The notes beneath the pieces were generated by a model, which was given only the letters and a program-made list of their open reading frames with translations, had not been told where the DNA came from and made no database searches. DNA of 64,000 nt, taken from positions 1 to 64,000 of the IMG/VR virus record IMGVR_UViG_3300014208_000026. The stretch is one strand, 5' to 3'. The stretch is from a virus (taxonomy: Duplodnaviria; Caudoviricetes). The position numbers and the translations under genes are program-made. Below are positions 37,004 to 59,036 of the stretch, piece after piece; position 1 is the stretch's first letter, and each line of letters opens with the position of its first letter.

Positions 37004-37140
37004 GATTCTGGAGGTAAAAAGCCTTGTTTTGCCAGGGCTCGTAGAGGCCGGGGCGGTACAGTAATAAGGCTATCGCGCTCGCTTAGAGGGTCGGATGTTT
37101 GTGGCCGACCCTCCCTGTCATAACCGCTTCGGAGCAAAGC

Positions 37141-40100
37141 ATGTTTGTCGGCGCCCAGCAGGATCGAAAAGTTCGCATCTTCTCCCTCAAGCCCGAGTTT
37201 GTTGCTCAGTACAAGGACAAGCAGCCGCCTTGGGGTCCTTTGGGATATTTCGTGTATAAGAGGACCTACAGTAGGCCTTTGTTTGCTAATAATCCTGATG
37301 GACCAACAGAAGAGTGGTATCAGACCTGTCAGAGAGTTGTAGAGGGTGTTTACAACATTCAGAAGCATCACTGTAGGGGCATGGGTCTGGAGTGGAAAGA
37401 AGAGAAGGCTCAGATTTCAGCCAAAGAGATGTATGACCGTATGTTCAACTTCAAGTTCCTTCCCCCTGGACGCGGTTTGTGGTCCATGGGTACGGATGCA
37501 GTAATGATCAAGGGCGGGGCAATTTTGAACAATTGTTTCGCAGGAGAGACAGAGATCCTCACTGCCGATGGGGTGAAGAAGATCAGAGACGTCGCTGGAA
37601 CCATACAGACTCTTCTGGTCCATGACGGGACGTGGGCCGAAGCCCCTGTCCGGTCGTTCGGTATTCAGAAGCTGGTCAAACTTACCGTGGAGAGAGGGGG
37701 GGCCTATAAGACTGTTTTCTGTACTGCGAATCATCGGTGGTTAGTGAGTGTTGATCCCACCTACCCAATCTGCAACATTAGTCATTATGGGTCGCCTGTG
37801 GTACTGAATGGTATTGAGGCACGAGAGGTTGAGACCACGCTGCTTGCCGAAGGGGTTCCTCTTTACAGCGTACTCCCCGGAGTTGGGGTAGGGCCTGACG
37901 TTGAACCTTGGTTCGTAGTCAGTGTAAAGGAAACGGGTCGCGAAGAAGAAGTGTTCTGCGCTACCGTCCCTCAGTACGGAAACTTCACTCTGGCAGATGG
38001 TTTACTCACGGGAAATTGCGGGTTCACGTCGACCGAAAACATCAAAGAAGACTTTGCCGATCCTTTCACGTTTCTGATGGATATGTCGATGCTGGGCGTC
38101 GGAGTCGGCGGGGATATGCTCGGGGCAGGGAAGGTGAAGATCCTTACCCCCAGGATCAAGGACGAGACTTTCGTAGTGGAGGACAGTCGCGAAGGCTGGG
38201 TCGAGCTGGTCGGGACGGTGTTGAACAGCTTTGTCCACAAGGGCTACATGCCTGCCAACATCGACTACACGAAGGTTCGTCCTCGTGGGGCGCCGCTCAA
38301 GGGCTTCGGTGGAACCGCTTCGGGTCCGGGGCCTTTGATGGATCTCATTGACAGTATTAAGAAGGTTCTCACGCCTCCGGAAGGTGTGGAGTCCTATTGG
38401 ATCACCTCACGACACATTTCAGATATCATCAACATGATTGGGCGGTGTGTTGTAGCTGGCGGGATCCGCAGAAGTTCCACTATTTTGTTCGGGGATCCTG
38501 CCGACGAAGAGTTCCAGAATCTCAAGGACCCGACTGAGCGCGATGCTCTTCGACGGGAATTGACCCTTCTGCGTGAGACGGAAGCAAGCAAAGTCCCCTC
38601 CGTGCGAAGTCTGCGGGACTCTATCGAGACGCTGGCGGCACAAGAGCGGAACGCTTGGTTCCTGCCGCTTCAGGAAGAAGTCCAGAAGTGCATGGAGGGA
38701 GGGAACCATACAAAGGCAACCGAACTCCTGAAGAAGAAGCAGCCGGAAGAGACTGTTCGGCTGCGGGAGTTGCGGGCGGAACTGAAGCGTCTCGTGAAGG
38801 AAGAATCGGATAAATCAACTTCCGTTCAGGAACTTGAGGGGAGGTTGTACTCTCTCCCCCTGGAGGCGTGGCGTTGGTCGAGTAACAACAGCCTCGTGGC
38901 TACTGTGGGAATGGACTACACGAAGGCGGCAGAGTCCATCGCTAAGAACGGAGAGCCTGGACTGTTCTGGTTGGACAACGCTCGGGCTTTCTCTCGCATG
39001 GGTCGAAAGCCCGACTGGAAGGACAAGCGGGCCAAGGGTTGCAATCCCTGTTTTGCTGGGGACACCTTGATTGCTGTCGCGGATGGTCGAGGGGCTGTTC
39101 CTATCAAGGATTTGGCAGAGACTGGAAACGACGTTCCGGTCTATGCTATGAATCCTGAGACTGGAGAGGTGGCTGTTCAGCGTGCGTGGCGTCCCAGGAA
39201 GACTCGTTCGGGTGCAGAACTTCTGGAGATCCAGTTCGAGGGAGGCGGATCTCTGCGGGTTACCCCCGATCACGGGATGCTCACTATGGACGGGAGGAAG
39301 ATTCCGGCCAGTGAGATCCGGCAGGGGTTCATGGTTCCGTATTCCCAGGAAGACCTTCGTGTAGAGCACCCTTTTGAGACTTTCGAGTGCGACAGTGTTG
39401 TCAAGCCCTGTGAAGTGTGCGGGAGAGCCCTGGAGGTTCCTTTTGGCCGTCGTGAGGAGTCTTGTTGTTCCCCTGAGTGTTTCGACAAGCTGGCCGCTCG
39501 GGAACAGCAGGGGAAGGTGTGGGGTGAGGGGGTAGAGGCACGCAGGGTGTCCGCTGTAGTGAAAGTCCGAGAGTTGGAGGATGTGTACAATCTGACTGTC
39601 AAAGACTTTCATACTGTGGGCATTGCTCTAGACAACAATGTTAGTTGTTGTTCTATTGTTTTTACGGAAAATTGCAGCGAGCAAACGCTGAACTCGATGG
39701 AATTATGTACCCTTGTTGAGACTTTCCCTGCTAACCATGATTCTTTTGATGACTTTGCCAAGACATTGAAGTTCGCATATCTCTATGCAAAGACCGTAAC
39801 TCTTGTCATGACACACAATCAAAAGACGAACAATGTTATGGCTCACAACCGTCGTATTGGTTGTTCGATGTCTGGCATTGTGCAGGCCGTGCATAAGCAT
39901 GGGCGTTCGGAGTTTAGAAATTGGTGTAAGGAAGGCTATAAGGAACTGTTGAGGTGGGACGAAACATATAGTGAATGGCTTGGAATACCTAAAAGCATAA
40001 AGATAACGTCTGTCAAACCCTCGGGCACAGTTTCGCTGCTCTGCAATGCTACTCCTGGTATCCATTTCCCCCACAGTCAGTTCTACATTCGTAATATCCG

Positions 40101-42019: not shown

Positions 42020-44362
42020 GTGACCTCCCCTACTCCTACCTACTACTCCGGCAGAATTAACACCGTCCTCTTCTCCAATCCGGCGAAGTCCTTCTACGTG
42101 TTCAAGATGATGCCTGATGGCCGCTCGGAAACCGTGGCAGTCAGGGGTCAAGTGGTTGGCCTGGATATTGAAGTTGGCACGTGGTTTGGTTTCGAGGCTC
42201 ACTGGGAGAACCACCCCAAGCACGGGCGCCAGTTGGTTATCGACAAAGCCCCCGTGTTCAAGAACGGGTGGGACGCGGACACGGTAGTCCAGTTGTTGAT
42301 TTCCAGTGGGGTAGGGGAGGGCGTGGCTCATTCCCTCAAGAAGACTTTTGGATCTAACCTCCCCCAGGCACTCCTGGATGCTGAAACCCTACAGTCCAGC
42401 CCTGGCATTTCGAAGTTCACGGCTCAGCTTATCTCGTCCAAGTGGGATTCCATCCGAGCCTATCACGAGACCTTGAACTTCCTTCTCAAGATCGGCGTCC
42501 CCCAGGGGCAGATTCGTTCCCTGTGGTCCATGTACCGAGAGAAAGCGGAAGAGGTGATGAGTCGCAATCCGTGGGCTCTCACCCGCATTGACGGGATCAG
42601 TTTCGAAGTAGCTGACGAGATTGCCAGTCGTTTGAATATCCCCCTCGACTGTCCTGAGAGAGTTCAGGGAGCGGTGCTCTACGTAAACCGGTCCCAGAAG
42701 GAGTCTGGTCACCTCTATTTGAGTTCGGGAGATATCCTGAATGCCGTACGGAGGTATATCCCTGGAGTGACCCCGAAGGCAATCGGTGAGGCTCTGGTTA
42801 CTGCGAGTAAGGAGAAGTTGTTGGTACTCGACCGAGAAACCCGTCCTGGGTTGACGGCTGTATACGAGCCTTGGGGGTACAGGGTAGAGAATGAGTGCGC
42901 CCGTCTCCTGCATGACCGCGTTCGAACTGCGGGGGTCGGGGATCCTGTAGCCTATGCGGAGGCCCTCACCTCTTTGGGGGTTGTAGTTGAGCGGAAGTCG
43001 GAAGATACCTTGAAGCAAACGGTCGACAAGGTTGTAGATGGTTGGGGGAAGGTGTTGGGGTTGCAGCTTTCCCCCGACCAGATTCGAGGGGTAAGAAACG
43101 CCCTGATTGAGCCCGTGTCGATTATCAACGGTCTGCCCGGGACAGGAAAGACGGCTTCTCTGAAAGTCGTCGTCAAGATCCTTCAGGCTATCGGGGAGCC
43201 TTACCTACTCGTTGCACCTACGGGGATTGCAGCGAAGAGGTTGGAGGCTTTGACAGGCGCCAAGGCTGCTACGATCCATCGGGCGTTCGGGGCCCAGAAC
43301 GTCAGTTCGGATGAAGGAAGAGAAGCCACGTACGAGGGCATTGTTGGAACGGGGACCGGAGCCAAGACGGACGCGGAGGGGGAAGTTTGGGAGTACGGGG
43401 ACGGAAACACACATACTGCCAGGGTTATAGTCGGAGATGAGTTCAGCATGGCAGACCAGCACCTTCTGTACCGTATTTTATCATGTACTTCCGATAAATG
43501 CCGTTTGGTGTTTGTTGGAGATGCAGCGCAGCTTCCGAGTGTTGGCCCGGGGAATGTACTGAGGGATTTGGCTGGAAGCCAGAAGTTCCCTGTGGTGGCC
43601 CTCACCCAGATTTTCCGACAGGACCACACGAGCGGGATTGTTCCGGCGGCTCATGCGATCGTCCACGGAGAATTCCCCAAGACGGGTTGCGGAGCAGAAG
43701 ATGATTTTGTGTTGTTGGAGCGTGAGGGTGAGGCGGAGGTTTACAACACGATCCTGGGTTTGGCGGATCGGATGTACCGGCAGAGGATTCAGTTTCAGAT
43801 TCTCAGCCCGAAGCATGATGGGCCGGTAGGAGTCACGGCGTTGAATGCGGGGCTGAGGGAACTGCTCAATCCCGCAGCCGAAGGGCTCTTGGAAACTCGC
43901 ATGGGGCGGAACATCGTGCGGGAAGGGGACCGCGTCATGGTCGTCAAGAACAACTACAAGCTGGGGGTCTATAACGGGGACATCGGGAAGGTGAACCGCA
44001 TCAACCGGAAGACCGAGGAGATCGAAGTCAAGATTTTCGGGAATCCGGTACTATTTGTACCATTTAAGTTCAGTGAGTTTGCTGTTTATGTACGAATGGC
44101 GTTTGCCTGCAGCATTCATAAGAGCCAATCGCAGGAATTTGATAGGGTGATTGTACCTCTGGTCGACTCATTCAAGCACCAGCTACAGAGAAACCTGCTT
44201 TATACGGCGGTTACGCGAGCCAAGAAGAAGGTTTACCTTGTGGGGACGAAGACCGCTCTGGCTCGGGCCGTGGAGAATGACCGCGAGGATCGGCGGAACA
44301 CCTTGTTTCGGGATCGTTTGGAGAAAGCTTTCCAGAAGGGAACCGACAAAGATGAAGCCTGA
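42020..44362 (+). CDS. recD2: RecD2-like SF1B helicase
   Basis: HhH region, GLPGTGKT, DEFSM, GDAAQLPSV and HKSQSQEF. Confidence 0.9.
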   Translation: MTSPTPTYYSGRINTVLFSNPAKSFYVFKMMPDGRSETVAVRGQVVGLDIEVGTWFGFEAHWENHPKHGRQLVIDKAPVFKNGWDADTVVQLLISSGVGEGVAHSLKKTFGSNLPQALLDAETLQSSPGISKFTAQLISSKWDSIRAYHETLNFLLKIGVPQGQIRSLWSMYREKAEEVMSRNPWALTRIDGISFEVADEIASRLNIPLDCPERVQGAVLYVNRSQKESGHLYLSSGDILNAVRRYIPGVTPKAIGEALVTASKEKLLVLDRETRPGLTAVYEPWGYRVENECARLLHDRVRTAGVGDPVAYAEALTSLGVVVERKSEDTLKQTVDKVVDGWGKVLGLQLSPDQIRGVRNALIEPVSIINGLPGTGKTASLKVVVKILQAIGEPYLLVAPTGIAAKRLEALTGAKAATIHRAFGAQNVSSDEGREATYEGIVGTGTGAKTDAEGEVWEYGDGNTHTARVIVGDEFSMADQHLLYRILSCTSDKCRLVFVGDAAQLPSVGPGNVLRDLAGSQKFPVVALTQIFRQDHTSGIVPAAHAIVHGEFPKTGCGAEDDFVLLEREGEAEVYNTILGLADRMYRQRIQFQILSPKHDGPVGVTALNAGLRELLNPAAEGLLETRMGRNIVREGDRVMVVKNNYKLGVYNGDIGKVNRINRKTEEIEVKIFGNPVLFVPFKFSEFAVYVRMAFACSIHKSQSQEFDRVIVPLVDSFKHQLQRNLLYTAVTRAKKKVYLVGTKTALARAVENDREDRRNTLFRDRLEKAFQKGTDKDEA

Positions 44363-45734
44363 GATTTTGATCCTTCCCGTAGGGGACAATCCGCCGAAGG
44401 CTACTCTGTACTACGGACAGCACGTTTTGGACGTTCTGAAGGAGTTGCCGGACGAGAGTGTTCATGCGATCGTGACAAGCCCGCCTTACTATTCTTTGAG
44501 GCGGTACGGAACAGAGCCGGTGATTTTCGGGGGAGATTCGGAGTGTATTCACGAGTGGTCCGGTTCAGAGGAAGAAGGTCAGTGGACGTGTTCTAAGTGT
44601 GGGGCTTGGAAGGGGGAGTTAGGGCAAGAGCCCTCCCCCGAACTTTTTGTTTTGCATCTCGTCGAGATCCTCCATGAAGCGAAGCGGGTTCTTCGGTCGG
44701 ACGGCCAACTTTGGCTTAACCTCGGGGATAGCTTTGCTAACGACACGAAGTGGGGCGGGTCGAGCGGAGGGAAACACGTCAAGGCCCTTCACGGGGATAC
44801 AGGGATTGGGCGAGATAAGAAGTCGACGGGACTAATGCCGAAGAGCCTCATTGGAATTCCTTGGCGGGTAGCTCTGGCTCTCCAAGAAGATGGCTGGTGT
44901 CTTCGCAACGACAATATTTGGGCAAAGAAAAATTCTATGCCATCACCCGTTTCAGACAGGTTCTCTTGTAAGCACGAACACATTTTCCTGTTGACCAAGG
45001 AACCGCACTATTTCTTTGACCTGGAAGCTGTGCGGGTGCCTTTCGAGTCAGGCAGTTATGACGAGGACGGGAATCACTGTCCTTCTCAAAACTGGTTTGA
45101 GAAGAATGAGGGGGAGCGGAAGATTGACAACATAGAGGCGAACCTGGGGGATATGTCGGGGCCTCCCCGTAGAGTTGGGCGAGGGCTTTTCAATCCAGGA
45201 GGGAAGAATCCCGGGGATGTGTGGCACTTAGCTACCCACCCGTACCCCAAGGCTCATTTTGCTTGTTGGCCACCCGCTATCCCCGAACGTTGTATCAAAG
45301 CCGGTACCAGTGAGCGTGGGTATTGCCCTGTCTGCGGTGCTCCGTGGATTCGACAGGTAGAGAAAGAGAAGATTCCGGACCGACCCAATCGAGTGCAGGG
45401 TAGGGAGGGGGACACGCTCGGGGAGGCCCACGGAAAGGACGGGAGGTCCGGTTCTCGATGTAGCCTGTCCGTTCGTACTTTGGGTTGGGAGCCTTCGTGT
45501 GATTGTGGGTCAGACCTGCCCCTTACCCGTGCTGTGGTGCTTGACCTCTTTAGTGGGTCAGGCACTACAGGCATGGTCGCTCTTCAGTTGGGTAGGGACT
45601 ACATCGGAATCGACCGGTCCGAGAAATACTTGCCGATGGCCAAGGAACGGATTTCGGGTATAGAGGAGGCTCCTGAGAGCCCTGTCTCACAGGACGGGAC
45701 GCAGCCTAGCATCACCGACCTTTTCGGCCGATAG
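44352..45734 (+). CDS. beta-class N4-C/N6-A DNA methyltransferase with Cys-rich insertions
   Basis: TSPPYY, HFACWP and VLDLFSGSGTTG. Confidence 0.88.
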   Translation: MKPEILILPVGDNPPKATLYYGQHVLDVLKELPDESVHAIVTSPPYYSLRRYGTEPVIFGGDSECIHEWSGSEEEGQWTCSKCGAWKGELGQEPSPELFVLHLVEILHEAKRVLRSDGQLWLNLGDSFANDTKWGGSSGGKHVKALHGDTGIGRDKKSTGLMPKSLIGIPWRVALALQEDGWCLRNDNIWAKKNSMPSPVSDRFSCKHEHIFLLTKEPHYFFDLEAVRVPFESGSYDEDGNHCPSQNWFEKNEGERKIDNIEANLGDMSGPPRRVGRGLFNPGGKNPGDVWHLATHPYPKAHFACWPPAIPERCIKAGTSERGYCPVCGAPWIRQVEKEKIPDRPNRVQGREGDTLGEAHGKDGRSGSRCSLSVRTLGWEPSCDCGSDLPLTRAVVLDLFSGSGTTGMVALQLGRDYIGIDRSEKYLPMAKERISGIEEAPESPVSQDGTQPSITDLFGR

Positions 45735-48047: not shown

Positions 48048-48707
48048 ATGAGAGTTCTCGGTCTTGACCCCTCGCTTTCTCAGTTCGGTTGGGCACTCGT
48101 CGAGCTTTCCGGTCCTGAAGGCTATGCTCAGTGCCTGAGTCGTGGAAGGTTGAGGGCGCCTGCTCGCAATTTTCCTGCTTTCGTCCAGCGATACCTCCAC
48201 CAGCGGGACGAGTTGAGAACTGTGATTCAAGAACAGAAACCCGACAAAGTGTCTATCGAGTCCCCCATCTTTGGGGAAATGTACTCGGAGGGCATGTACG
48301 GGCTGTTTCTCTATTGTCACGAGGCTTTGTTGCTGGAAGGTATGGACGCCGTGCATTTCTCTCCTGGACAGACCAAAGCTTGTGCTCGGGAATGCATTCC
48401 GCGTCCTCCGAAGTGGAAGATGGAGAAAGAGGATATGGTCGAGGCCGCCAAAACCGTATCCGGTATCAAGAAGTCCTGGAATCACAACGAGGCGGATGCT
48501 TACTGGGCGGCTCACTTGGGGGCTAGGTTCTGGCTCCTTCGGGAAGGGGCAATCCAGGAAGAACACCTGGGAGCCAGGGAGCGGGATCTCTTCCTGGAGA
48601 TCCACAAGTATATGAAGGGTAAGAAGGCGGGGCAGACGGAGTATTCCGGTCTGCTCTATCGGGAAGACGATCGTTTCTTCCTGTGGTCACAACTGAAGGA
48701 GGCGTAA
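48048..48707 (+). CDS. ruvC: RuvC-like Holliday junction resolvase
   Basis: VLGLDPS, VSIESP and NHNEADAY. Confidence 0.78.
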   Translation: MRVLGLDPSLSQFGWALVELSGPEGYAQCLSRGRLRAPARNFPAFVQRYLHQRDELRTVIQEQKPDKVSIESPIFGEMYSEGMYGLFLYCHEALLLEGMDAVHFSPGQTKACARECIPRPPKWKMEKEDMVEAAKTVSGIKKSWNHNEADAYWAAHLGARFWLLREGAIQEEHLGARERDLFLEIHKYMKGKKAGQTEYSGLLYREDDRFFLWSQLKEA

Positions 48708-48708
48708 C

Positions 48709-50067
48709 ATGCCAAAAGGCATTCCTAACAAGAAGCGGATTGCTCCCGTAGAGGATCCGGATCAGGGCGAGATCGAAGAGGGTGTTGTCGAAGTCGTCGA
48801 GAAGAATGAAACCCCCAAGGCTTCTATTTCAGGAAAGCCGCCCACGGCCCTGAAGCTGGCCCTGGAGGACCTGAAGAAGGACACCAAGGGCAAAGAAGGT
48901 AGCTACGTGGTGCTGGACCCGAAGCTGCTCACTCAGTCTTTCCCTCACTGGGGGACTGGTTCGATTACTGCCGATTACTACATCGGCGGGGAGCCCAACG
49001 AGAAGGGGGTTGCACCCTGCCCGGGATTGCCCAAGGGGCGTGTGACCCTGCTGTACGGTAGAGAGTCCTCGGGCAAGACCACCCTCGCCCTTACAATGGC
49101 TGCGGCCGTGTGTAAGGCGGGGGGTACTTGCTGTTACATCGACTACGAGCAGGAAGTGAACCTGTCGTGGGCTGAGACTCTGGGGGTGCCGGTCAAGGAC
49201 GAGGCTCGGTTCCAGCTTCACCAGCCGGACAACCTTGACGCAGGGGCCTTCGTAGCTTTGAAGATGATTCAGCGGGGCGTTTCCCTGGTCATTTTCGACT
49301 CGGTCGGAGCTTCTCAGACCAAGGCGGAGAGCCTGAAGGCTCTCGACGAGGCTGCTCGCGTAGGTGCTAACGCTGGGTTCTGGAGTCGAGTGGCTCCCAC
49401 GCTGAAGAACGCCTGCAACAAGTACGGGTCCTCTTTGCTGGCTATTTCCCAGGTTCGTACGAAGGTGGACACTTCGGGCGGTAAGGCCAAGGGGGATCCT
49501 GAGAAGCCCCAGGGCGGGAACATTTGGATGCACGTCCCGAGCGTTCGTATCAAGCTTGTCCGCATCGGCGCTCTGAAGGAAGGGGTTTTCGATCCGTTCC
49601 AGAACAAGATCGAAGACGCCGTGGTCGGCCTGATCGGCAAGATGAAGATCGAGAAGTGCAAGGTCAGCCAGAACATGGGACGTGAGGGGATCTATCACCT
49701 GCGTTCCGGTTTCGGGTTCGACAATCCTACGACGATCATCGAGCTTTGTTCCAAGCACCGTATTGTCCGCAAGGACGGGTCTTGGTTCACGGTCGAAGGT
49801 CCGGACGGGAATGAGTGCCGTGCTCAGGGTCTTCGCGGTTTCCGAGAGAAGGTTCTGAAGGACGAAGCTCTGTTCAAGTTCCTTTGGAGGAAGACCGTTG
49901 AGGCGCTTTCCGCCCACGCCGCTTCTCCCGTAGAGGAAGAAGAGGTGGAGATGGTCGAGGGGGACGACGAAGCAGAAGCTCTGCTGGCGGAACTCTCTGG
50001 GGAGAAGGGTCTGTCCACGGACGGGTCTGAGATCGATGACGACGAAGGCGGGATCGAGGGCGAATAG
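48709..50067 (+). CDS. recA: RecA/UvsX recombinase
   Basis: GRESSGKTT, YIDYE, VIFDSVG, ISQVR and PQGG. Confidence 0.9.
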   Translation: MPKGIPNKKRIAPVEDPDQGEIEEGVVEVVEKNETPKASISGKPPTALKLALEDLKKDTKGKEGSYVVLDPKLLTQSFPHWGTGSITADYYIGGEPNEKGVAPCPGLPKGRVTLLYGRESSGKTTLALTMAAAVCKAGGTCCYIDYEQEVNLSWAETLGVPVKDEARFQLHQPDNLDAGAFVALKMIQRGVSLVIFDSVGASQTKAESLKALDEAARVGANAGFWSRVAPTLKNACNKYGSSLLAISQVRTKVDTSGGKAKGDPEKPQGGNIWMHVPSVRIKLVRIGALKEGVFDPFQNKIEDAVVGLIGKMKIEKCKVSQNMGREGIYHLRSGFGFDNPTTIIELCSKHRIVRKDGSWFTVEGPDGNECRAQGLRGFREKVLKDEALFKFLWRKTVEALSAHAASPVEEEEVEMVEGDDEAEALLAELSGEKGLSTDGSEIDDDEGGIEGE

Positions 50068-50081
50068 ATAGGGGGCCCTAA

Positions 50082-51467
50082 ATGGCTGTCAAAGTCCGCA
50101 TCAAAAATTTCCAGTCACTCAAGGACATCTCCTTTGAAATCAAAGGGATGACGACCATCACGGGCCAGAACAACTCTGGTAAGACCGCTATCATGCGGGC
50201 CCTGCGGGGTGTCTGGGAAAACACGGCTTGTGAGTCCTACATTCGTTCCGGAGAAGCCTATTTCTCGGTTTCGATGGATTTCGAGGACGGGCAGTCCGTG
50301 CTTTGGGAGAAGGGGACTGAGAAGCCAAACGGGAAGGGCGGGACCATCAACCGCTACGTGATCAACGGTGTCACGTACAATGACGTCGGGCAGGGGGTTC
50401 CGGAGGCTCTGGACGCACTCAAAATCACGTCCGTCCAGGCCTCCGGACACACCCTCTGGCCTCAGATCGCCACACAGTTCCCCGACACGCAGCACTCCTC
50501 CCAGGTGTTCCTGCTCGACAAGACGGGTCCGGTGATCGCAGAGGCAATCGCGGACGTGGAAAAGGTCGGGTTGTTGAACAGAGCTTTGAAGGAGTCTGAG
50601 ACTGACCGCAGGACCGCCAACGCCGAACTGAAGACTCGACGTAAGGATGAATCCGAGGTCGCAAAGGGCCTGGAGCGGTTCGAGGGCTTGGAAGAGGTCG
50701 ACGTAGAGGTCATTCGACTTGAAGAGAAGTCGGCCGAGTTGGAGGAAGCCCGTAAAGGGTTGTTGCTCCATATGCTGCTCAGGGAGAAGGTGCAGAAGGC
50801 GGCGGGGGAAGTCTCTCGACTCCTCCCTGTGGAAAAGGTAGCTGTTCCGAGTACCGAGCGGGTTGCAGAACTGGAGGGCGCCCAGAAGAATCTGGCCCTC
50901 CACACCACGTTGCGGGATAGGGTTGTGAGAACCGACAAGGAAGTCTCTCGGCTCCTGCCTATCGAGAAGGTTCTTATCCCTGGGGCCGAGCAAACCGACA
51001 AGCTGCAGAAGTACCAGAAAGCGCTTACCACGGCTTCTAGGCTGAAGGGCTCTCTTGCACAGGCTGCGGCGGAGGTTTCCCGCCTGGGGGGTGTCGAGCA
51101 AGCTATTATCCCTGACGAACCGGTTTCCGTACAAGACCTCGGGGCACAGTTGCGGCAAGCCCACGAGATCCAAGCGGCCATTAAGAAGGCGGCGGGGGAC
51201 GTGGAACGGTACTCCGCGATTGAGGGGGTTGAATTCCCCTCCTCCGATCGGCTCCTGAAGATTCAGAAGACTCTGGGGGAAGCCCTGGACTTCAAGAAGC
51301 GGTTGTCGGGGACTGCCACGGAGGTGGCTTCCCTGACGGGGCAGTTGGAGACCGCTGAGAAGGGGTATATTGCAGCAGGGGTTGAAGTCGACTCCCTGAA
51401 GGCAGAACTGGGAAGCTGTCCTCTCTGCGGAGAGGTTTTCGGTGAAGGACACTTGCATGGATCCTAA
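50082..51467 (+). CDS. SbcC/Rad50 N-terminal half: Walker A, coiled coil, zinc hook
   Basis: GQNNSGKT, IATQF and terminal CPLC; no Walker B. Confidence 0.82.
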   Translation: MAVKVRIKNFQSLKDISFEIKGMTTITGQNNSGKTAIMRALRGVWENTACESYIRSGEAYFSVSMDFEDGQSVLWEKGTEKPNGKGGTINRYVINGVTYNDVGQGVPEALDALKITSVQASGHTLWPQIATQFPDTQHSSQVFLLDKTGPVIAEAIADVEKVGLLNRALKESETDRRTANAELKTRRKDESEVAKGLERFEGLEEVDVEVIRLEEKSAELEEARKGLLLHMLLREKVQKAAGEVSRLLPVEKVAVPSTERVAELEGAQKNLALHTTLRDRVVRTDKEVSRLLPIEKVLIPGAEQTDKLQKYQKALTTASRLKGSLAQAAAEVSRLGGVEQAIIPDEPVSVQDLGAQLRQAHEIQAAIKKAAGDVERYSAIEGVEFPSSDRLLKIQKTLGEALDFKKRLSGTATEVASLTGQLETAEKGYIAAGVEVDSLKAELGSCPLCGEVFGEGHLHGS

Positions 51468-52770
51468 AATCCTGAAGGCCGCTATTGGGGATAGCCCTGG
51501 TGTCGCCTCGTTGTACTACGGACAGGACGTGCTTGAGACTCTGAAGCAGTTACCGGACCAGTCCGTTCATATGGTGGCAACTTCGCCTCCCTATTTCAAC
51601 TTGCGTTCATATTTGCCCGAAGGGCACCCTGACAAGGCACGTGAAATAGGAGTCGAGGAAACCCCAGAGGAGTACGTCGAGAAGCTGGTTGTGGTGTTCC
51701 GTGAAATCTGGAGAGTGTTACACAACTCGGGTGTGATTTGGATTAATATCGCAGATAGCTATGTGGGTGGCGGGGGCTTTTCCCCTAATGCCCCGTCAAA
51801 TCTGGCAGGTTCTAAGCAGGCTACGCAGGGCGGGGCTAAGCCTGGGGGCGTTAAGCCCTGCGGTAAGCTGAAGCCTAAAGACCTCGTTGGTATCCCCTGG
51901 CTGGTAGCCCTGGCTTTGCGGGATGATGGCTGGTATTTGAGATCCGACTGTATCTGGCATCGGATCAATAGCATGCCAGAGAGCGTTTCGGACCGCTGTA
52001 CTAGAACCCATGAGTACATTTTCATGCTGACCAAGAAGCCTAAGTATTTCTTTGACGCAGAGGCGATCAAAGAAAAGACGGCTGCGGAGACTAGAGACCC
52101 CAGTACGACGGGGGTTACGGATTTTTTCGGATCAAATGAGGACACTTCTGATTCTGTTGATATTGATGTAACGAGAAATCATAGAACAATTTGGTCTTTT
52201 TATTCTCGTCCATATAAAGGCGCTCATTTTGCTACTTTTTGCGAGGAGCTTCCTGAGACCATGATCAAGGCAGGTTCCAGCTCATGGGGTTGTTGCCCTC
52301 GCTGTCTAGCCCCTTGGAAGAGAGTATCGGGGAAGCCCTGCGAGAAGTGCGGCGCTTTCGTCAGAACGGCTGCTGTCAAGTGCCCAGGTTGCGGTCACGT
52401 TCGGGATTGGAAGAAAGGCCGTATGGCCAAGGAAGAACTTCTAGCCGGGAATTTTGATTCCGGGTCGGGAAAGCACGTTCCCAGGTTCCCGGGCAATTAC
52501 AAGAACAACACGGTCTTTGGGGAGTGGGTTCCTACCTGTAACTGTCCGGCCCATGAGCCGGTTCCATGTACCGTGCTGGACCCTTTCAGCGGGTCTGGGA
52601 CTACGGGCAGGGTAGCCCTCCGGCTGAAGCGTAACTACATCGGGATCGATTTGAACAAAGAGTACGAGGCCATGGCCGTCAAGCGAATTGACGGGGTTAC
52701 GGAGCCCGAGGTTTCTACTGACGGAATTCTGGAGCAAGGGACGCTCGTTGTTTTTGGAGCCTCAAAATGA
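51457..52770 (+). CDS. second beta-class N4-C/N6-A DNA methyltransferase
   Basis: TSPPYF, HFATF and VLDPFSGSGTTG; CPRC, CEKC and CPGC insertion. Confidence 0.88.
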   Translation: MDPKILKAAIGDSPGVASLYYGQDVLETLKQLPDQSVHMVATSPPYFNLRSYLPEGHPDKAREIGVEETPEEYVEKLVVVFREIWRVLHNSGVIWINIADSYVGGGGFSPNAPSNLAGSKQATQGGAKPGGVKPCGKLKPKDLVGIPWLVALALRDDGWYLRSDCIWHRINSMPESVSDRCTRTHEYIFMLTKKPKYFFDAEAIKEKTAAETRDPSTTGVTDFFGSNEDTSDSVDIDVTRNHRTIWSFYSRPYKGAHFATFCEELPETMIKAGSSSWGCCPRCLAPWKRVSGKPCEKCGAFVRTAAVKCPGCGHVRDWKKGRMAKEELLAGNFDSGSGKHVPRFPGNYKNNTVFGEWVPTCNCPAHEPVPCTVLDPFSGSGTTGRVALRLKRNYIGIDLNKEYEAMAVKRIDGVTEPEVSTDGILEQGTLVVFGASK

Positions 52771-53732
52771 TCAAGCTAGTTTACCGTAAAGACGCTCATC
52801 TTGCCGGACAGTCTCCGCAGTCCCGTAAGGATGACTACGCCGAGTCCATTCTCGCCAAGCTTCGACAGACTGTTGAAATCGCAGAGGAAGAGAACGCGGA
52901 CGCCCTGTTGGACGGTGGGGACCTTTTCCACGTCAAGGCACCGACGAGGAATCCCCACTATCTGACTACCCGTTTGATTGAGGCCCACTACTCCAGGGTT
53001 CGTACGTACCTGACTCCCGGGAACCACGACGTGGTGTACGGGGATATGCAGCACCTCGCCCAACAGCCCCTTGAAGTGTTGTTTGCCTCTGGGGCGATTC
53101 GACGCTTGTACGGAGAGCATGAGGCGGTGTTCGAGCGGGACGGTTTGAAGGTGCGTGTTGTCGGGGTAGCTTATCCTGGCAGGGAGTACGACAAGAGCAT
53201 TCTCGATATCAAGAAGAAGGACGAGGACTACCTCGTTGTGTCCGCACACCTCCTGGCCAGCAGCGAGGGCGGGTCTATGTTCGAGAATGAAGATATCATC
53301 TCCTACAGTGACCTCAAAGGGCTGGATGCTTCGGTCGTGCTGTTTAGTCACTGGCATAAGAACCAGGGCATTGTAGAATTTGCCCCTGGGAAGTGGGTCG
53401 TGAATATCGGGGCTCTCTCCCGAGGGTCTTTGATTCAGGACAACGTGGAGCGCACTCCCTCGGTGGCGGTTCTCTCGTTTACCAAAGAGGGCATTCAGGT
53501 TGTGGAACGGCCTCTGAAGGTTCTGCCTGCGGACGAGGTTTTCGATTTGCAGGGTAGAGTACGAGCGGAAGCCCGTACCATGACCATCGAGGATTTCGTG
53601 ACCCACGTCGATGAAATGCTGTCTCCTACGGTCACGCAATCGTTGGCTGAGACGGTGCGAAACCTGCCTGATATTCCGGAAGCTGTGCGGGAGAAGACTC
53701 TCGATTACATTGAACGAGCTAAGGTAGTCTGA
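52767..53732 (+). CDS. sbcD: SbcD/Mre11 metallophosphoesterase nuclease
   Basis: DAH, GGDLFH, GNHD and SHWH. Confidence 0.85.
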   Translation: MIKLVYRKDAHLAGQSPQSRKDDYAESILAKLRQTVEIAEEENADALLDGGDLFHVKAPTRNPHYLTTRLIEAHYSRVRTYLTPGNHDVVYGDMQHLAQQPLEVLFASGAIRRLYGEHEAVFERDGLKVRVVGVAYPGREYDKSILDIKKKDEDYLVVSAHLLASSEGGSMFENEDIISYSDLKGLDASVVLFSHWHKNQGIVEFAPGKWVVNIGALSRGSLIQDNVERTPSVAVLSFTKEGIQVVERPLKVLPADEVFDLQGRVRAEARTMTIEDFVTHVDEMLSPTVTQSLAETVRNLPDIPEAVREKTLDYIERAKVV

Positions 53733-53734
53733 CG

Positions 53735-54673
53735 ATGGAACAGCAGAAGATTCTCTATTGGACGGGGTTCGACCGTTACGAAAACTGCCCTCAGCAGTAC
53801 CTATGGTACTACGGCTGGCCCGGAATCGACGTGGGGGGAGGTCCTGGGAAAAAGAAGCCCGTCCCGAAGCAGCGGTCCGAGCACCACCTCCTCATGGGGA
53901 CTGTGATTCAGGCTGTCGTCGAGTGGATGTATCTAACCGAAGCATGGAAGAATCCGGTTACTCTGCGATCTTCCGCTCGGGAGACCCTGGACAAGCGGTT
54001 CGAGCGGGAGTTGGCTCGACGTTTTGTCGACTGGCACGAGGTTACCCGTCAGGAGATTTACGATATCTGCCTGAGCGGGGTAATGGGCTATCTGGATACG
54101 ATGGTTGCCAACCGGTTGGTTGGGGACGTGATGCGGCCCGAGATTGAGTTCATCGGTTGCCTGAAGCAAGACAGCTACCCTATTGCGGTTCGAGCGGACC
54201 TTGTGATTGTTCGCAAGAACACGAACGTTCTGCCTGGGGTGACCGTTCTAGACGGGAAGAATTCCAAGCACAAAGACAAGTACACGAATCCAGATCAGTT
54301 GAGGTGGACCGCCCTTTGCCATTATCTGCGTCAGGGGACTTTGCCAGACCGGTTGGGGTGGTGTTACTACCGATACCCTGCGGGCACTCCCATTCCTGGG
54401 ACGGATCAAGTAGAGACAGGGATTGACTGGGTGTCCTACACTCTGGACGAAGTCAAGGGTCTGGCGGCACGGGCCATCGAGGCTCACGACGGATTGTTGG
54501 CACAGAATTTCGATCCGCATCCGGTTCCGAAGGTCTGCAAGTTCTGTGATTACGAGCCCGTGTGTGAGGCTCGGCAGACTACCAAGAGGCGCCGGAAGCC
54601 CAAGCCAAGTTTGTTTGGGGATGGGGAGGATTGGTCCCCCCGTGAGGTCGAGATCGAGGGAGAGCCTGAATAG
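53735..54673 (+). CDS. PD-(D/E)XK exonuclease, AddB/Cas4-like Fe-S
   Basis: YENCPQQY, RADLV, LDGKNS and CKFCDYEPVC. Confidence 0.82.
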   Translation: MEQQKILYWTGFDRYENCPQQYLWYYGWPGIDVGGGPGKKKPVPKQRSEHHLLMGTVIQAVVEWMYLTEAWKNPVTLRSSARETLDKRFERELARRFVDWHEVTRQEIYDICLSGVMGYLDTMVANRLVGDVMRPEIEFIGCLKQDSYPIAVRADLVIVRKNTNVLPGVTVLDGKNSKHKDKYTNPDQLRWTALCHYLRQGTLPDRLGWCYYRYPAGTPIPGTDQVETGIDWVSYTLDEVKGLAARAIEAHDGLLAQNFDPHPVPKVCKFCDYEPVCEARQTTKRRRKPKPSLFGDGEDWSPREVEIEGEPE

Positions 54674-54679
54674 AGTATA
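54669..54679 (+). promoter_or_regulatory. class II motif AATAGAGTATA
   Basis: Upstream of the clamp operon. Confidence 0.6.
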
Positions 54680-54721
54680 TAGGGGACTGACGAGTTCACC
54701 GGACTGAGAGGTAAAAAGAAA

Positions 54722-54994
54722 ATGCCGGATCCTACGATGCAGTTGGAAGCCGCTCTCAAGAAGCGGGAGACGCTCTCGAACCTGAAGGAGCGGTTGACAG
54801 GTACTTTGGAAGCCGCTAAGAAGCGTCAGGAAGAGGCTCGGGCGGAATGCCAGAAGCGGGGGATCGACCCCGACAATCTGGACAACGTGATCAAGAAGTT
54901 GGAGACGGCCTTCTCCGAGGGCGTTTCCAAGTTCAGTGCAGATTTGGAAGTTGCGGAAACCAACCTCAAGCCGTTTGCAGGAGAACAAGGATGA
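54722..54994 (+). CDS. small coiled-coil protein
   Basis: 90 aa, heptad-rich. Confidence 0.65.
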   Translation: MPDPTMQLEAALKKRETLSNLKERLTGTLEAAKKRQEEARAECQKRGIDPDNLDNVIKKLETAFSEGVSKFSADLEVAETNLKPFAGEQG

Positions 54995-56142
54995 AGATTC
55001 AGGTTGCCAGCCAGGACCTCAAGGCCGCGTTCAAGGTTGCGTCGTGCGCCGTGGGTAGTGAGGGCGAAGACGTCCAGACCCATTTCGTGTTCAGGGCTTC
55101 GGACAAGGGGAAGGTGGAGATCCTGTCCTATTCCCAGCGTATCTTCGCCAGTTCCCCTCTGGTCTGCACGGTAGAGGGCGGGCCTTTCTCGTTCACGATG
55201 CGTGCAAAGGATATCCAGAAGTGGGTGCGGGCTCTGCCGGATGAGCTGTTGACGTTGGAATTCGACCAGGGTACCGCCAACGTGGTGGCCAAGGCCAGCA
55301 ATGCCACTGTCCCGTTCGGATCCCTGGATCCGGCCAGTTTCCCCTACTGGGACGGCGAACTGAAGGACGCCAAGGAGATTTCAGAGATTCCGGCCGGTGC
55401 CTATCGTGAGGCCCTGATCTATGCTCGCGGGTTTGCTTCGAAGGAAGACACGCAGCAGCCCGCTCTGTGTGTTGTGCGAGTGCAGGATGGTGTGTGCATG
55501 GCGACGGACCAGACCGGCGTGGTCAAGGTCACTATCCCTTCCCTGAAGGGCACCTCTACCCTGGCCCACACCAAGTACCTCAAGGGTCTGACCGACTACC
55601 TGGGGGGCTTGGGGACGAAGCCGGTCAAGGTGCTCACTCATCCCCGTATGACTGTGTACGTGGGTCCGGATGGGGAATATTTCGGGGAGAGCGCTCACGG
55701 GCTCATGTTCCCCGACCTTTCGATTGACGGGAATATCCAGGACCAGAACTGGTGGGAGTTCAACGTCAAATCGATGCAGTCGGCTATCGAGGCTCTGGGG
55801 GCTACGGCCAAGGACGATGATCAGAAGATCAAGTTCCGTCTCGACCCGCAGGCCAACAAGATCATGATGTCAATGGCTACTCGAACGGGCGGAGAGAGCC
55901 GTTTCGAAGTTCCCTGCCTGGGTTACGGGAAAGAGCCGGACTTCGATATCTACACCGACACTTTCACTTTGGGGAAGGGCCACCTTCTCACGATCCTGGG
56001 CCTGTATACGGACGCCACTGCCCGTCTCGGGGTGAACTACCCTGGAGCCAAGACGAAGACCGGTTGGGTTCGTCAGCGTCGTGTTGTCGCCAGCCCTGAG
56101 GGCGATTGCGAGTTCCTGGCAATCCTTCTCTGGCTGTTCTAG
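54991..56142 (+). CDS. dnaN: DNA Pol III beta sliding clamp
   Basis: About 383 aa, repeated beta-rich domains, DPASFP and MATDQ; ATG at 54991. Confidence 0.75.
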   Translation: MKIQVASQDLKAAFKVASCAVGSEGEDVQTHFVFRASDKGKVEILSYSQRIFASSPLVCTVEGGPFSFTMRAKDIQKWVRALPDELLTLEFDQGTANVVAKASNATVPFGSLDPASFPYWDGELKDAKEISEIPAGAYREALIYARGFASKEDTQQPALCVVRVQDGVCMATDQTGVVKVTIPSLKGTSTLAHTKYLKGLTDYLGGLGTKPVKVLTHPRMTVYVGPDGEYFGESAHGLMFPDLSIDGNIQDQNWWEFNVKSMQSAIEALGATAKDDDQKIKFRLDPQANKIMMSMATRTGGESRFEVPCLGYGKEPDFDIYTDTFTLGKGHLLTILGLYTDATARLGVNYPGAKTKTGWVRQRRVVASPEGDCEFLAILLWLF

Positions 56143-56153
56143 GAGACAAGACT

Positions 56154-56567
56154 TTGGAACCTCTAGTCTTATACTTGAGCAGACAGTTGGGGTTGGGGGT
56201 TTCCTGCAACGCTCTATGCCAGGAGTTGCTGGACGACCAGTCTTTGCTGGGGCGGGCCTATCCCCGGGTGTGTCGCAGTCGCGTAGCGGCACAGCTTAGG
56301 GCCCAGACAAAAATCCGCAAAGCTCTGGATTGTTCTTTCAAGCCTCTATTTGCGTGGTTCCTGGAACGCAAAGCGGGCCAGACCTGGGACGTGGTCAGTA
56401 AGCAGGTTGTTTTGGCGGGTAGTGTGAAGGAGGCTCGCGTGTTGGCTTCTGAAAAGGCCGGAGAAGAAGGGGCTCGGTGTTGGTTGTCGGGGCGACGGTC
56501 TACATGCACCCGACTCCCCTCTGTGGAAGGGCCTGCTCGTGCTCTTGTCAACAATTACGCAGGCTAG
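56154..56567 (+). CDS. hypothetical protein
   Basis: AGGAG RBS and TTG start. Confidence 0.4.
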   Translation: MEPLVLYLSRQLGLGVSCNALCQELLDDQSLLGRAYPRVCRSRVAAQLRAQTKIRKALDCSFKPLFAWFLERKAGQTWDVVSKQVVLAGSVKEARVLASEKAGEEGARCWLSGRRSTCTRLPSVEGPARALVNNYAG

Positions 56568-56575
56568 GCTTTAAG

Positions 56576-57220
56576 ATGGAACCTCTTCTGGCTGTCCCCG
56601 CGATTACACCCCTTCGCTCAAAGCTGGAGAGGGTGAAGGGAGTTCGAGACGGCGAGCAGCTTCGTCTCTCTACCCTCCAGAAAGCTATCAAGAAGTTGGA
56701 AGAGGACGAAGAACTTCTGAGTCTGGTTTCCGCCCTCCTGCGTTCCCTGATTGATAAGGAAGTGGAAGCAGGGAAGCAGGTCATCGAACGTTTGCAGACC
56801 GAGGCGTTGCAGGCGGTGTTCGATGATCAGGATATTTCCCTGCGAGCGGAACTTTCCATCCAGAGGAACAAGGTAGCCGTCGAGTTGGTGACTGTCCAGA
56901 AGCAAGAGGACGGCACGGTGAATCAAGGTATCAGTTCGGACGCTTTCGGCGGGGCTGTGACTACGGTAGAATCCGTGCTGATGCGTATCGTCGTGATCCT
57001 GCGCCGAGAGCTTCGTAGGATTCTGTTGTTGGACGAGAGCCTTCCGGCGTTCGATCCCAACTACGTGACGAACATGGCGAAGTTCCTCTCCCTGTTGTGT
57101 GCTAAGCTGGGCTTGGATATTTTGCTCATTAGTCACAACCCCGTTCTGATTGAAGGGAGCGATAGCGCCCTCACACTGGTCAAGAAGGGCAATTTCGCCA
57201 AACTGACAAGGCTTCGTTAA
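56576..57220 (+). CDS. SbcC/Rad50 C-terminal half: signature, Walker B, H-loop
   Basis: Short coiled coil, AFGG, LLLDESLPAFD and LLISHN; no Walker A. Confidence 0.8.
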   Translation: MEPLLAVPAITPLRSKLERVKGVRDGEQLRLSTLQKAIKKLEEDEELLSLVSALLRSLIDKEVEAGKQVIERLQTEALQAVFDDQDISLRAELSIQRNKVAVELVTVQKQEDGTVNQGISSDAFGGAVTTVESVLMRIVVILRRELRRILLLDESLPAFDPNYVTNMAKFLSLLCAKLGLDILLISHNPVLIEGSDSALTLVKKGNFAKLTRLR

Positions 57221-57221
57221 A

Positions 57222-57800
57222 ATGAGCACTGCTCAACGTACCGGAATGAAGCGTCGGAAGGAAGTTGAACAGAAGCTCCGACAGGTACGTTTCCGGCACT
57301 TGAAGGTCTATTTGAACGAGAAGCTGAAGCGAGCCGCCTGTAACTGTGAGTTTTCGGGCTGCTACCCCCAGGGAACAGAGGCCACTTGTGCTCATGCAGC
57401 CCTCCTTGACGTCCCCTATCGTATCTGCGATTCCAGGTTCGGAGGGGATAAGATCGCTCAGGTGTGTCCTCATTTCCAGGCCAAGCTGGGGGTCGAGCAG
57501 TACAAGGAAGAGTTCCGGCAACTCATGACCCGCAGTCGGGCTGAGATTGCTCAACGGTATCCTGATATCGCGGCTCTCATGTGGGTGCTCGGTGAGGATT
57601 TCGTGCAGGATATTCAATTGGAGGCTGATGATGTCTGGTCTGAAACCGAAACCCCGCAAGATTCTGGCTCTGCACCTGGACCAGATGACGAAGCCTGTAC
57701 CCGAGCGGGCCTCGGAGAAGGCGCCGACCTCACCGGCAGAGTGCCCGAAGGTGCCTCGCAAGAACCACGACCTTCTGGGGCGGGGGACACTGCCTCTTAA
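57222..57800 (+). CDS. Cys-rich hypothetical protein
   Basis: CNC...C...CAH...ICD...CPHF. Confidence 0.6.
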   Translation: MSTAQRTGMKRRKEVEQKLRQVRFRHLKVYLNEKLKRAACNCEFSGCYPQGTEATCAHAALLDVPYRICDSRFGGDKIAQVCPHFQAKLGVEQYKEEFRQLMTRSRAEIAQRYPDIAALMWVLGEDFVQDIQLEADDVWSETETPQDSGSAPGPDDEACTRAGLGEGADLTGRVPEGASQEPRPSGAGDTAS

Positions 57801-58341
57801 AGAAGGGACCCTGCTCGTAGAGTTTCCTGTTCACCCTGGACTCGCTCCTTACTTGGTTACAGGGGCTTCGAAGCCCCATCTTTGGATTGAGCGGGCTTTT
57901 GGCAAGGGCGGTAGGGGTGCTTACGTCCGTCTCGCGGTGAAGTCCCAGGAAAAGGATCTCGGAGCCTACTACTGGTCCATGGTGGAGACTTTGAGTCAGC
58001 GGAGTGATCAGTCCGGATGGGGGAGCATATTCAAGGCCACTCCGGAGGTGCCTTTTGAGGAAACCATCCGTAAGGCTCTCCAGTATGTTCTCTCGTTCGA
58101 TATCAGCGAGGTCGAGGTGTTGGTCCATCCCGACTGTGCAGATTCTGCCATGAAGGCCGTGGCTCCTGAATTTGTGACTCCGGTTACGTGGTTCAAGACC
58201 CCTTGTTGCGTGGTGGTGCCCAGGGATCGCGATTTCCTGGGGGCTCTCCTGGCCGTGTCCCCTGGAAGGTTTGTGGGGATCGTCCACAATGCCAGTCGTG
58301 GTTTTGCAATGGCTGTCCCGACTGCGGGGGTCGCGGTTTGA
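57685..58341 (+). CDS. hypothetical protein
   Basis: ATG at 57685; coupled to the primase gene. Confidence 0.6.
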   Translation: MTKPVPERASEKAPTSPAECPKVPRKNHDLLGRGTLPLKEGTLLVEFPVHPGLAPYLVTGASKPHLWIERAFGKGGRGAYVRLAVKSQEKDLGAYYWSMVETLSQRSDQSGWGSIFKATPEVPFEETIRKALQYVLSFDISEVEVLVHPDCADSAMKAVAPEFVTPVTWFKTPCCVVVPRDRDFLGALLAVSPGRFVGIVHNASRGFAMAVPTAGVAV

Positions 58342-59036
58342 GAGCGTGGCTTGAAGAGGCTCTGTCGAATACTGAGTTGCCGGAGGACGCAATAGGGTAT
58401 CTATTACGGCGTGGCGCCAAACCCGAGACCTACACGAAGATGGGGGTTACAGTTTGGCAGGCTCCGGAAGCGGTAGCGCCGGACCAGAGCCGCAAAGACC
58501 GGTATGGCCCCAGGTGGGAGAAGCTTCAGGGACGGCTTGCTATCCCGCTAGTATCCCCCGCAGGTAAGGTAATTGGGGTCGAGTTTCGAGGGATGGAGCA
58601 GAAGAAGTTGGATCGGTATCTGCTCCCCGAGGCGGAGTGGAATCCGGTCTGGCATATGATTCCAGGGTCCGTGGAGGCTCTGTGGGCTGGACGTCCTGCG
58701 TGGTTGGTTGAGGGGGCTTTCGATATGTACGCCATGGAATGGGCGGCCCCTGGAGACGGTATTTTCGCAGTGCTGAGGGCGGCTCTTTCCAGGAAGCAAA
58801 TTGAGTTCCTGAGGCGGTTTGCCTCTTTCGTGAATGTTTGTTTCGACAGGGATAAGCCCGGGTTGGAAGGCATGCATGGAGGAAAGGACAAGACCGGTAA
58901 GTTTCATCCTGGGGCGTTGTACCTCCTCAGGAAGGCCGAGATCGCGTGTGCAGAGGTTGTTTTCCGGGGGGGTAAAGACCCCGGTGAATTGTGGGATGCA
59001 AGGGGTCGGGACATGACGGCATGTTTCGGTCGCTAG
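58338..59036 (+). CDS. DnaG-type primase catalytic (TOPRIM) core lacking zinc-binding domain
   Basis: YLLRRG, IGVEFR, WLVEGAFD, CFDRDKPG and KDPGE. Confidence 0.8.
   Translation: MRAWLEEALSNTELPEDAIGYLLRRGAKPETYTKMGVTVWQAPEAVAPDQSRKDRYGPRWEKLQGRLAIPLVSPAGKVIGVEFRGMEQKKLDRYLLPEAEWNPVWHMIPGSVEALWAGRPAWLVEGAFDMYAMEWAAPGDGIFAVLRAALSRKQIEFLRRFASFVNVCFDRDKPGLEGMHGGKDKTGKFHPGALYLLRKAEIACAEVVFRGGKDPGELWDARGRDMTACFGR

Follow-up and report, generated by a model that had tools for sequence, protein, structure and literature searches.

A Rad50/SbcC-type ATPase probably assembled from separately encoded pieces, cut just after the zinc-hook motif, in a huge phage and its relatives

The subject of this report is a 64,000-nucleotide stretch of viral DNA (hereafter the window), which makes up the first 64 kb of the 257-kb IMG/VR virus record IMGVR_UViG_3300014208_000026, and in it two genes that together carry the parts of a Rad50/SbcC-type ATPase. 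We consider it highly probable (about 85%) that this ATPase is produced as separate polypeptides, cut just after the CPxC motif of the zinc hook, and that the pieces would rebuild one ATP-binding cassette (ABC) head in trans and work together with an SbcD nuclease; the hook would be expected to bind zinc and the reassembled enzyme to be active. The upstream gene, here called the N-piece, and the downstream gene, the C-piece, lie 5.1 kb apart (Table 1), and the cut falls 12 residues past the hook. Rad50/SbcC is universal, and in current models a continuous antiparallel coiled coil links its zinc hook mechanically to the ATPase head. A split Rad50 is at odds with this textbook picture of a single folded-back chain. 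Since CheckV estimates the completeness of the 257-kb record at 49%, we take the source of the window to be a huge phage.

The motifs of the head are complementary across the two genes. Walker A and the Q-loop are found in the N-piece, and the signature, Walker B, D-loop and H-loop in the C-piece, so that the bipartite motif set of an ABC or SMC (structural maintenance of chromosomes) head is present but spread over two polypeptides. The predicted folds divide along the same line. In the AlphaFold2 (AF2) model of the N-piece, with a mean predicted local distance difference test score (pLDDT) of 76.7, a head lobe at residues 1-125 is followed by helices at residues 161-199, 203-247, 258-291, 302-335, 350-378 and 388-443, and CPLC lies in a short turn. 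Foldseek places this model closest to chain 1f2u_A, the N segment of P. furiosus Rad50 (E 4e-5), with the heads of RecF, SMC and Gabija proteins ranking next. VIA-align agrees with Foldseek for residues 1-233 and is informative there only, its matches to the arm being generic long helices with very large root-mean-square deviations. The C-piece model (mean pLDDT 82) consists of one long helix and then head lobe II, and its top Foldseek matches are the C-terminal segments of SMC/Rad50 heads (5h66_B, 8e-8; 3qkr_B, 2e-5; 1f2u_B/D, TMt 0.69). Sequence profiles compared with the PDB gave weak matches to Rad50 in both cases, the N-piece to chains 5f3w_B, 3qkr_A and 1f2t_A (E 5e-5 to 3e-4) and the C-piece to the C segments 3qkr_B, 1us8_B and 1f2t_B (E ~4e-4).

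Because the motifs are complementary and each fold matches one half of a Rad50/SMC head, assembly in trans is the natural reading, and the Rad50 heads 1f2t and 1f2u, deposited as separate N and C chains, indicate that a two-chain head is physically viable. The preliminary description of this DNA, made from its letters alone, had already proposed a heteromeric Rad50 assembled in trans, and the fold matches and the motifs support it. Its N-terminal gene, said to hold Walker A, the Q-loop and a coil and to stop right after CPLC, was confirmed in coordinates and motifs, with 12 residues following CPLC, and SbcD indeed lies between the pieces. As to the C-piece, the coil, Walker B/D-loop and H-loop are as described; the signature is at its expected position, but it is degenerate, reading [F/Y/S]-G-G-[A/S] across the family, and the canonical serine is absent from most members. 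The ATG at 56576 is the start of the C-piece that aligns with those of its relatives.

The assignment to Rad50/SbcC follows from the invariant CPxC at the distal end of the arm, the lack of a hinge and the adjacent Mre11/SbcD-type gene. C446, P447 and C449 of the N-piece are invariant in 40 aligned sequences, and CPxC stands at the distal arm end in the window, in Bacillus phage 0305phi8-36 and in the compact operons described below. A Rad50-like head fold and an adjacent Mre11/SbcD gene are both present, the PDB sequence matches of SbcD being to P. furiosus Mre11 only (E 0.001). What the window lacks is the single folded-back chain with a long antiparallel intramolecular coil, two genes being found in its place here and in all relatives. 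An SMC protein proper (Smc/MukB/condensin-like) was considered and rejected: no hinge is found in the N-piece, whose arm ends in CPxC and 12 residues, searches of Pfam and PHROGs returned no kleisin-like family in the gene module, and the neighbour is an Mre11-type nuclease. An ATPase of the OLD, Gabija GajA or PARIS AriA type was also rejected, since similarity is confined to the P-loop region (6p74, residues 4-42) and the N-piece has an Mre11-type partner, a hook motif and a long arm.

The split is genuine, and its layout is conserved both in the cultured phage 0305phi8-36 and in hundreds of relatives known only from uncultured material. For comparison we used 11 IMG/VR loci (10 distinct) fetched with the C-piece, together with the GenBank huge phage LR745208.1, whose proteins were left out of the family alignments. 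In every locus with sufficient flank the order is RuvC, RecA, N-piece, SbcD, PD-(D/E)XK nuclease, a protein of about 90 residues (the 90-aa protein), DnaN, C-piece, primase and tau, at 26-56% identity by tblastn; the SbcD-like Metallophos gene, which here stands between the two pieces, directly follows the N-piece in relatives. The same order, free of insertions, is seen in a distant contig (L022) whose C-piece (P0339) matches the family profile at E 2e-30. Among word-matched candidates the C-piece family comprises 837 clusters at 90% identity, and an exhaustive HMMER search returned free-standing C-pieces in 3,200 clusters at 50% identity with E<=0.001, or 1,242 with E<=1e-10, the best 150 of which do not exceed 324 aa. 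None of 8,000 longer candidate proteins was a fused form at E<=0.001, which is weak evidence in itself. The best 120 relatives of the N-piece measure 356-461 aa, stop at the hook and have AAA_15/AAA_23-type matches only, with one exception of 755 aa that carries intein domains. No other SMC-like head was found in the 257-kb record, and one scan of bacterial genome contigs with the C-piece profile matched a single contig of a metagenome-assembled genome.

The N-piece matches ORF008 (gp8) of the cultured Bacillus phage 0305phi8-36, a 769-aa fusion protein that begins with an SbcD-like Metallophos domain, continues as an N-piece (phrog_16465, E 6e-167) and ends in CPTC and 19 further residues. 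In their account of gp8, Yoshida et al. 2011 (PMC3175470) went no further than to state that one segment of the P-loop NTPase "was not observed". The C-piece homologue is gp5 (236 aa; hhalign probability 98.7%, E 3.4e-16; phrog_15167, E 2e-98), annotated in that record as "chromosome segregation ATPase", and it has a further match in the C-terminal end of phrog_77, an SbcC-like family. Directly after the gp8 fusion comes gp7 (92 aa), to which the 90-aa family is related by hhalign (probability 81%, E 1.2e-5). Between gp7 and gp5 lies gp6 (238 aa, L001:9588-10301), which has no Pfam, PHROG or PDB relative.

A second, compact arrangement occurs on 20-kb metagenome contigs (L017:6019-8900; also L018 and L019), where three genes encode an N-piece of 302 aa, a Metallophos protein of 357 aa and a C-piece of 299 aa, next to genes for very large proteins (~3,026 and 765 aa). 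The N-piece of this operon ends 11 residues after CPTC. There is no small gene, and the C-piece bears an extra helical N-terminus of ~87-100 residues; in this two-piece form the arms are more or less in balance. Such an extension fits a return strand that is either fused or free, its equivalence to the 90-aa family being one of architecture only, as hhalign found no similarity between the 90-aa family and the N-terminal extensions (87-101 residues; P0347, P0381).

The arm of the N-piece is built of tandem 44-residue helix-loop modules, five of them in the window. Of the offsets from 10 to 149, only 44 gives it a positive BLOSUM autocorrelation (0.405), all others being negative, and the period corresponds to a predicted AF2 helix of ~34 residues and a proline-containing loop of ~10. 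No tandem repeat is found in the DNA of the arm; the repetition is seen in the protein only. Across the family, N-piece lengths cluster at ~363, ~405 and ~449 aa, the five-module protein of the window having 461, while the C-piece (209-216 aa) and the 90-aa protein (89-108 aa) are constant whatever the number of modules. The outgoing helical arm spans ~285 residues (161-443), compared with 72 for the helix of the C-piece, which bears out the earlier remark that the returning coil is much the shorter. A three-module arm, with ~150 helical residues, finds an approximate counterpart in the 72 residues of the C-piece helix taken together with the ~76 that the 90-aa protein has in its two helices, but arms of four modules (~194) and five modules (~237 helical residues) are unbalanced even with the 90-aa protein included. 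The extra modules might double back, associate with the arm of another N-piece or recruit further copies of the 90-aa protein. We would entertain, as a tentative and rather unlikely proposal, that the arm is a non-covalent modular assembly, with three to five modules and the hook on the N-piece and the return strand provided in trans by the C-piece helix and at least one copy of the 90-aa protein, or by pairing between two N-arms. If this were true, arm length could change by gain or loss of modules with no covalent return strand having to keep pace, and communication between hook and head in Rad50 would need no continuous folded-back chain.

Whether the 90-aa protein is a third piece of the arm is a finely balanced matter, and we place that possibility a little short of even odds. 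Its gene is kept in every relative examined, its two predicted helices are joined by a conserved G-x-[DE]-P-x-x-L loop, and its relatives in the Atlas are viral hypothetical clusters only, of ~91-93 aa. In a complex prediction made with the N-piece and the C-piece, in which the 90-aa protein was the scored partner, the score was 0.42, a weak degree of support, against 0.00 for the best of three controls and 0.00 when the N-piece was replaced. The runs agreed in at least 97% of contacts and the pLDDT of the partner was at least 75; no interface was reported. The mark applied to such predictions is reached by 58 of 80 solved complexes and by 2 of 110 mismatched pairs, and among those that pass, scores up to 0.60 comprise only 7 of the 80 solved complexes and both passing mismatches. 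Comparison of the 90-aa family with the N-arm by hhalign was not significant (probability 30%). The earlier suggestion that the 90-aa product could supply part of the returning coil thus gains a homologue in gp7 and a weak pass in complex prediction, but even with it the return strand is too short for four- and five-module arms.

The alternative that the enzyme has two pieces only appears to us evenly poised. The 90-aa protein would then have no part in it and might, for instance, be a regulatory protein or an associate of the clamp that is translated together with DnaN, and the N-arm would support itself or pair with a second N-arm. The 90-aa gene always lies immediately upstream of dnaN and overlaps it here through ATGA; its product does not change in length with the number of N-arm modules; hhalign does not match its family to the N-terminal extensions of the two-piece forms; and the complex score falls within the weak band. 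These observations are countered by phage 0305phi8-36, where gp7 follows the gp8 fusion and no recognised or annotated clamp gene precedes the C-piece gene, gp6 alone standing between, by the loss of the predicted contact on replacement of the N-piece, and by the compact operons, in which the small gene is missing and the C-piece has ~90-100 additional helical residues at its N-terminus.

Several observations weigh against a Rad50 rebuilt from these pieces. Because the N-arm varies in steps of 44 residues and the partner pieces are constant, the four- and five-module forms, among them the protein of the window, cannot have the canonical antiparallel coil over their full arm length. Given the serine-less signature, the way in which ATP drives the heads together may not be the canonical one. 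The folds of both pieces match SMC and RecF heads equally well and do not single out Rad50, and the match of the hook to the solved zinc hook 1l8d (E 0.22) is not significant. As the complex prediction scored the 90-aa partner only, the contact between N-piece and C-piece carries no score. Finally, the 90-aa protein, being always upstream of dnaN, may belong to the clamp instead.

It could also be supposed that the two genes serve different machines, the N-piece as a truncated SMC-like protein without lobe II and the C-piece as a half-ABC protein serving the clamp or clamp loader. The constant position of the C-piece, after dnaN and before primase and tau, would suit this idea. However, the two pieces co-occur wherever flanks allow, they flank only an Mre11-type gene in the compact operons, and gp5 matches the C-terminal end of an SbcC-like family. 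In ABC/SMC heads, moreover, ATP hydrolysis is to our knowledge beyond lobe I when lobe II is missing. We therefore regard separate machines as very improbable.

Still less probable is that a split intein or a trans-splicing intron unites the pieces in one chain of the canonical kind. Inteins and interrupted genes are common in the module of the relatives, where RecA carries an intein and LAGLIDADG (L022:1-1186), the 755-aa N-piece relative P0196 has Hint/LAGLIDADG domains, SbcD falls into two blocks ~1 kb apart (L010:3896-6016) and so does the tau-like clamp loader, with a separation of 1.3-1.6 kb (L007:9945-12656, L013:13202-15908); mobile inteins or introns appear to target genes of this module in relatives. 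In the window, however, the 12 residues after CPLC and the ~9 before the C-piece helix leave no room for intein halves, Rfam finds no intron or other RNA family in 49000-58500 (E<=1), five conserved genes separate the pieces, and the return strand of the joined chain would remain far too short. Disruption of one intact Rad50 gene, whether through misassembly, a frameshift or recent pseudogenisation, for which the unusual layout and nothing more could be cited, has the least chance of all and can be regarded as excluded, as the split and the gene order recur in independent assemblies at only 30-55% identity with both reading frames intact, more than 1,200 C-piece clusters exist at the stricter threshold with none of the best 150 above 324 aa, the completely sequenced 0305phi8-36 has the same cut, and a search among the relatives for one intact gene behind the layout, the outcome that was to speak against a split, found the same two genes in the same order wherever flank sufficed.

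If the pieces assemble as we propose, the helix of the C-piece would run antiparallel to the base of the N-arm, pairing with it and so helping lobes I and II to combine into one ABC head, much as in the engineered two-chain heads of P. furiosus (1F2T/1F2U). Two such heads would engage on ATP and bind an SbcD dimer, and two N-pieces would be joined through zinc at their CPxC ends. By hairpin opening and end resection, the resulting complex would serve the neighbouring RecA/UvsX, RuvC-like and PD-(D/E)XK enzymes in recombination-dependent replication of the phage.

The two pieces belong to a replication/recombination module on the + strand that extends from ~44 kb onward, in the order DNA methylase, RuvC-like, RecA/UvsX, N-piece, second methylase, SbcD, PD-(D/E)XK nuclease, 90-aa open reading frame (ORF), DnaN-like clamp, 433-nt spacer, C-piece, Toprim primase, PhageMetallopep protein and tau-like clamp loader. 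Features of the pieces and their neighbours are collected in Table 1.

Table 1. Pieces of the split ATPase, their motifs and the neighbouring genes in the window
Feature	Nucleotides	Strand	Residues	Remarks
RuvC-like gene	48048-48707	+		
RecA/UvsX	48709-50067	+		
Rad50/SbcC N-piece	50082-51467	+	461 aa	Pfam AAA_23 E 3.5e-10, AAA_15 E 9e-10; phrog_16465 E 2.9e-15
N-piece Walker A	50163-50186		28-35	GQNNSGKT
N-piece Q-loop	50457-50480		126-133	WPQIATQF
N-piece arm, five tandem 44-residue helix-loop modules	50748-51407	+	223-442	
N-piece hook motif	51417-51428		446-449	CPLC; stop 12 residues later
N6/N4 DNA methyltransferase	51442-52770	+		Pfam N6_N4_Mtase E 1.2e-41
SbcD/Mre11-type nuclease	52767-53732	+	321 aa	Pfam Metallophos E 1.3e-10; phrog_100 SbcD-like E 6e-8
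PD-(D/E)XK (Cas4/RecB-like) nuclease	53735-54673	+		Pfam PDDEXK_1 E 5e-7; phrog_69 exonuclease
Two-helix protein, candidate third arm piece	54722-54994	+	90 aa	Stop overlaps DnaN start (ATGA)
DnaN-like sliding clamp	54991-56142	+		phrog_947 processivity factor E 5e-24; Pfam DNA_pol3_beta weak; position conserved
Rad50/SbcC C-piece	56576-57220	+	214 aa	phrog_15167 E 1.1e-19; no Pfam match
C-piece single helix			10-81	Followed by ABC head lobe II
C-piece signature position	56942-56959		123-128	AFGGAV
C-piece Walker B	57020-57037		149-154	ILLLDE
C-piece D-loop	57038-57055		155-160	SLPAFD
C-piece H-loop	57134-57136		187	H187

SbcD is 46-53% identical to the copies in relatives, and the PD-(D/E)XK nuclease, which keeps its position in all of them, is a conserved member of the module. 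The methylase between N-piece and SbcD is an insertion, the two genes abutting in four of the related loci (L004, L006, L007 and L009), and it is outside the Rad50 complex. It is a paralogue of the methylase at 44349-45734 (37% identity, E 3e-83). Hot spots of insertion in relatives lie between N-piece and SbcD and between SbcD and the nuclease, where 0.3-7 kb of variable genes are found. The spacer between dnaN and the C-piece (56143-56575) is absent from all relatives, where the gap is at most ~35 nt; it gives no signal of RNA structure (z +1.4), and an ORF in its region (56106-56567, TTG start) has no family match and no relatives. Elsewhere in the window are a 1,623-aa ribonucleotide reductase, class II-like, with Intein_splicing domains in two stretches (37099-41970, E 3e-24), a GroEL-like chaperonin (11677-13197, phrog_5725, E 1e-110) and a transposase (33072-34496, phrog_12300, E 1e-27).

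Our literature searches found no published description of a naturally split Rad50/SbcC. In jumbo phages, Iyer et al. 2021 report SbcC/SbcD as near-universal and make no mention of a split, and the "two separate genes" of a 2026 preprint are Mre11 and Rad50 as separate genes, not a split Rad50. A natural and widespread cut of Rad50 at the hook, with a short or trans return strand and an arm that changes in 44-residue steps, would offer a test of the need for coil and hook, and its pieces are small and separately expressible for structural work. Annotation is corrected as well: phage databases now list the C-piece under the generic name "ATPase" (phrog_15167) or as "chromosome segregation ATPase", and the N-piece under "exonuclease" (phrog_16465), so that surveys may score such phages as carrying a truncated SbcC.

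In comparison with known systems, the genes of the window resemble gp46/gp47 of phage T4 and SbcC/SbcD of E. coli in the layout of the ABC/SMC head motifs, the CPxC hook motif, the adjacent Mre11/SbcD phosphoesterase and the placement among phage recombination genes (RecA/UvsX, RuvC-like). They differ in that the ATPase occupies at least two genes, cut 12 residues past the hook, that the number of 44-residue modules varies, that the return strand is one 72-residue helix, perhaps complemented by the 90-aa protein, and that the serine of the signature is usually missing. Bacillus phage 0305phi8-36, with gp8, gp7 and gp5, shares the same cut, a free C-piece and a homologue of the 90-aa protein; in contrast to the window, that phage has SbcD as the leading part of a fusion with the N-piece, and its genes lie almost side by side. 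Mre11-Rad50 fusions (Mimivirus R555 and others) are likewise a rearranged architecture of the same machine in large viruses, but there two subunits are fused, whereas here Rad50 is divided. A structural parallel is found in the engineered domains of P. furiosus Rad50 (PDB 1F2T/1F2U/1II8), in which separate N and C segments assemble into one ABC head, a head that Hopfner et al. reportedly described with separate N and C chains in 2000. Those constructs are laboratory truncations without most of the coil and the hook, whereas the arrangement described here is a natural one in two chains, with a long arm and the hook motif on one of them.

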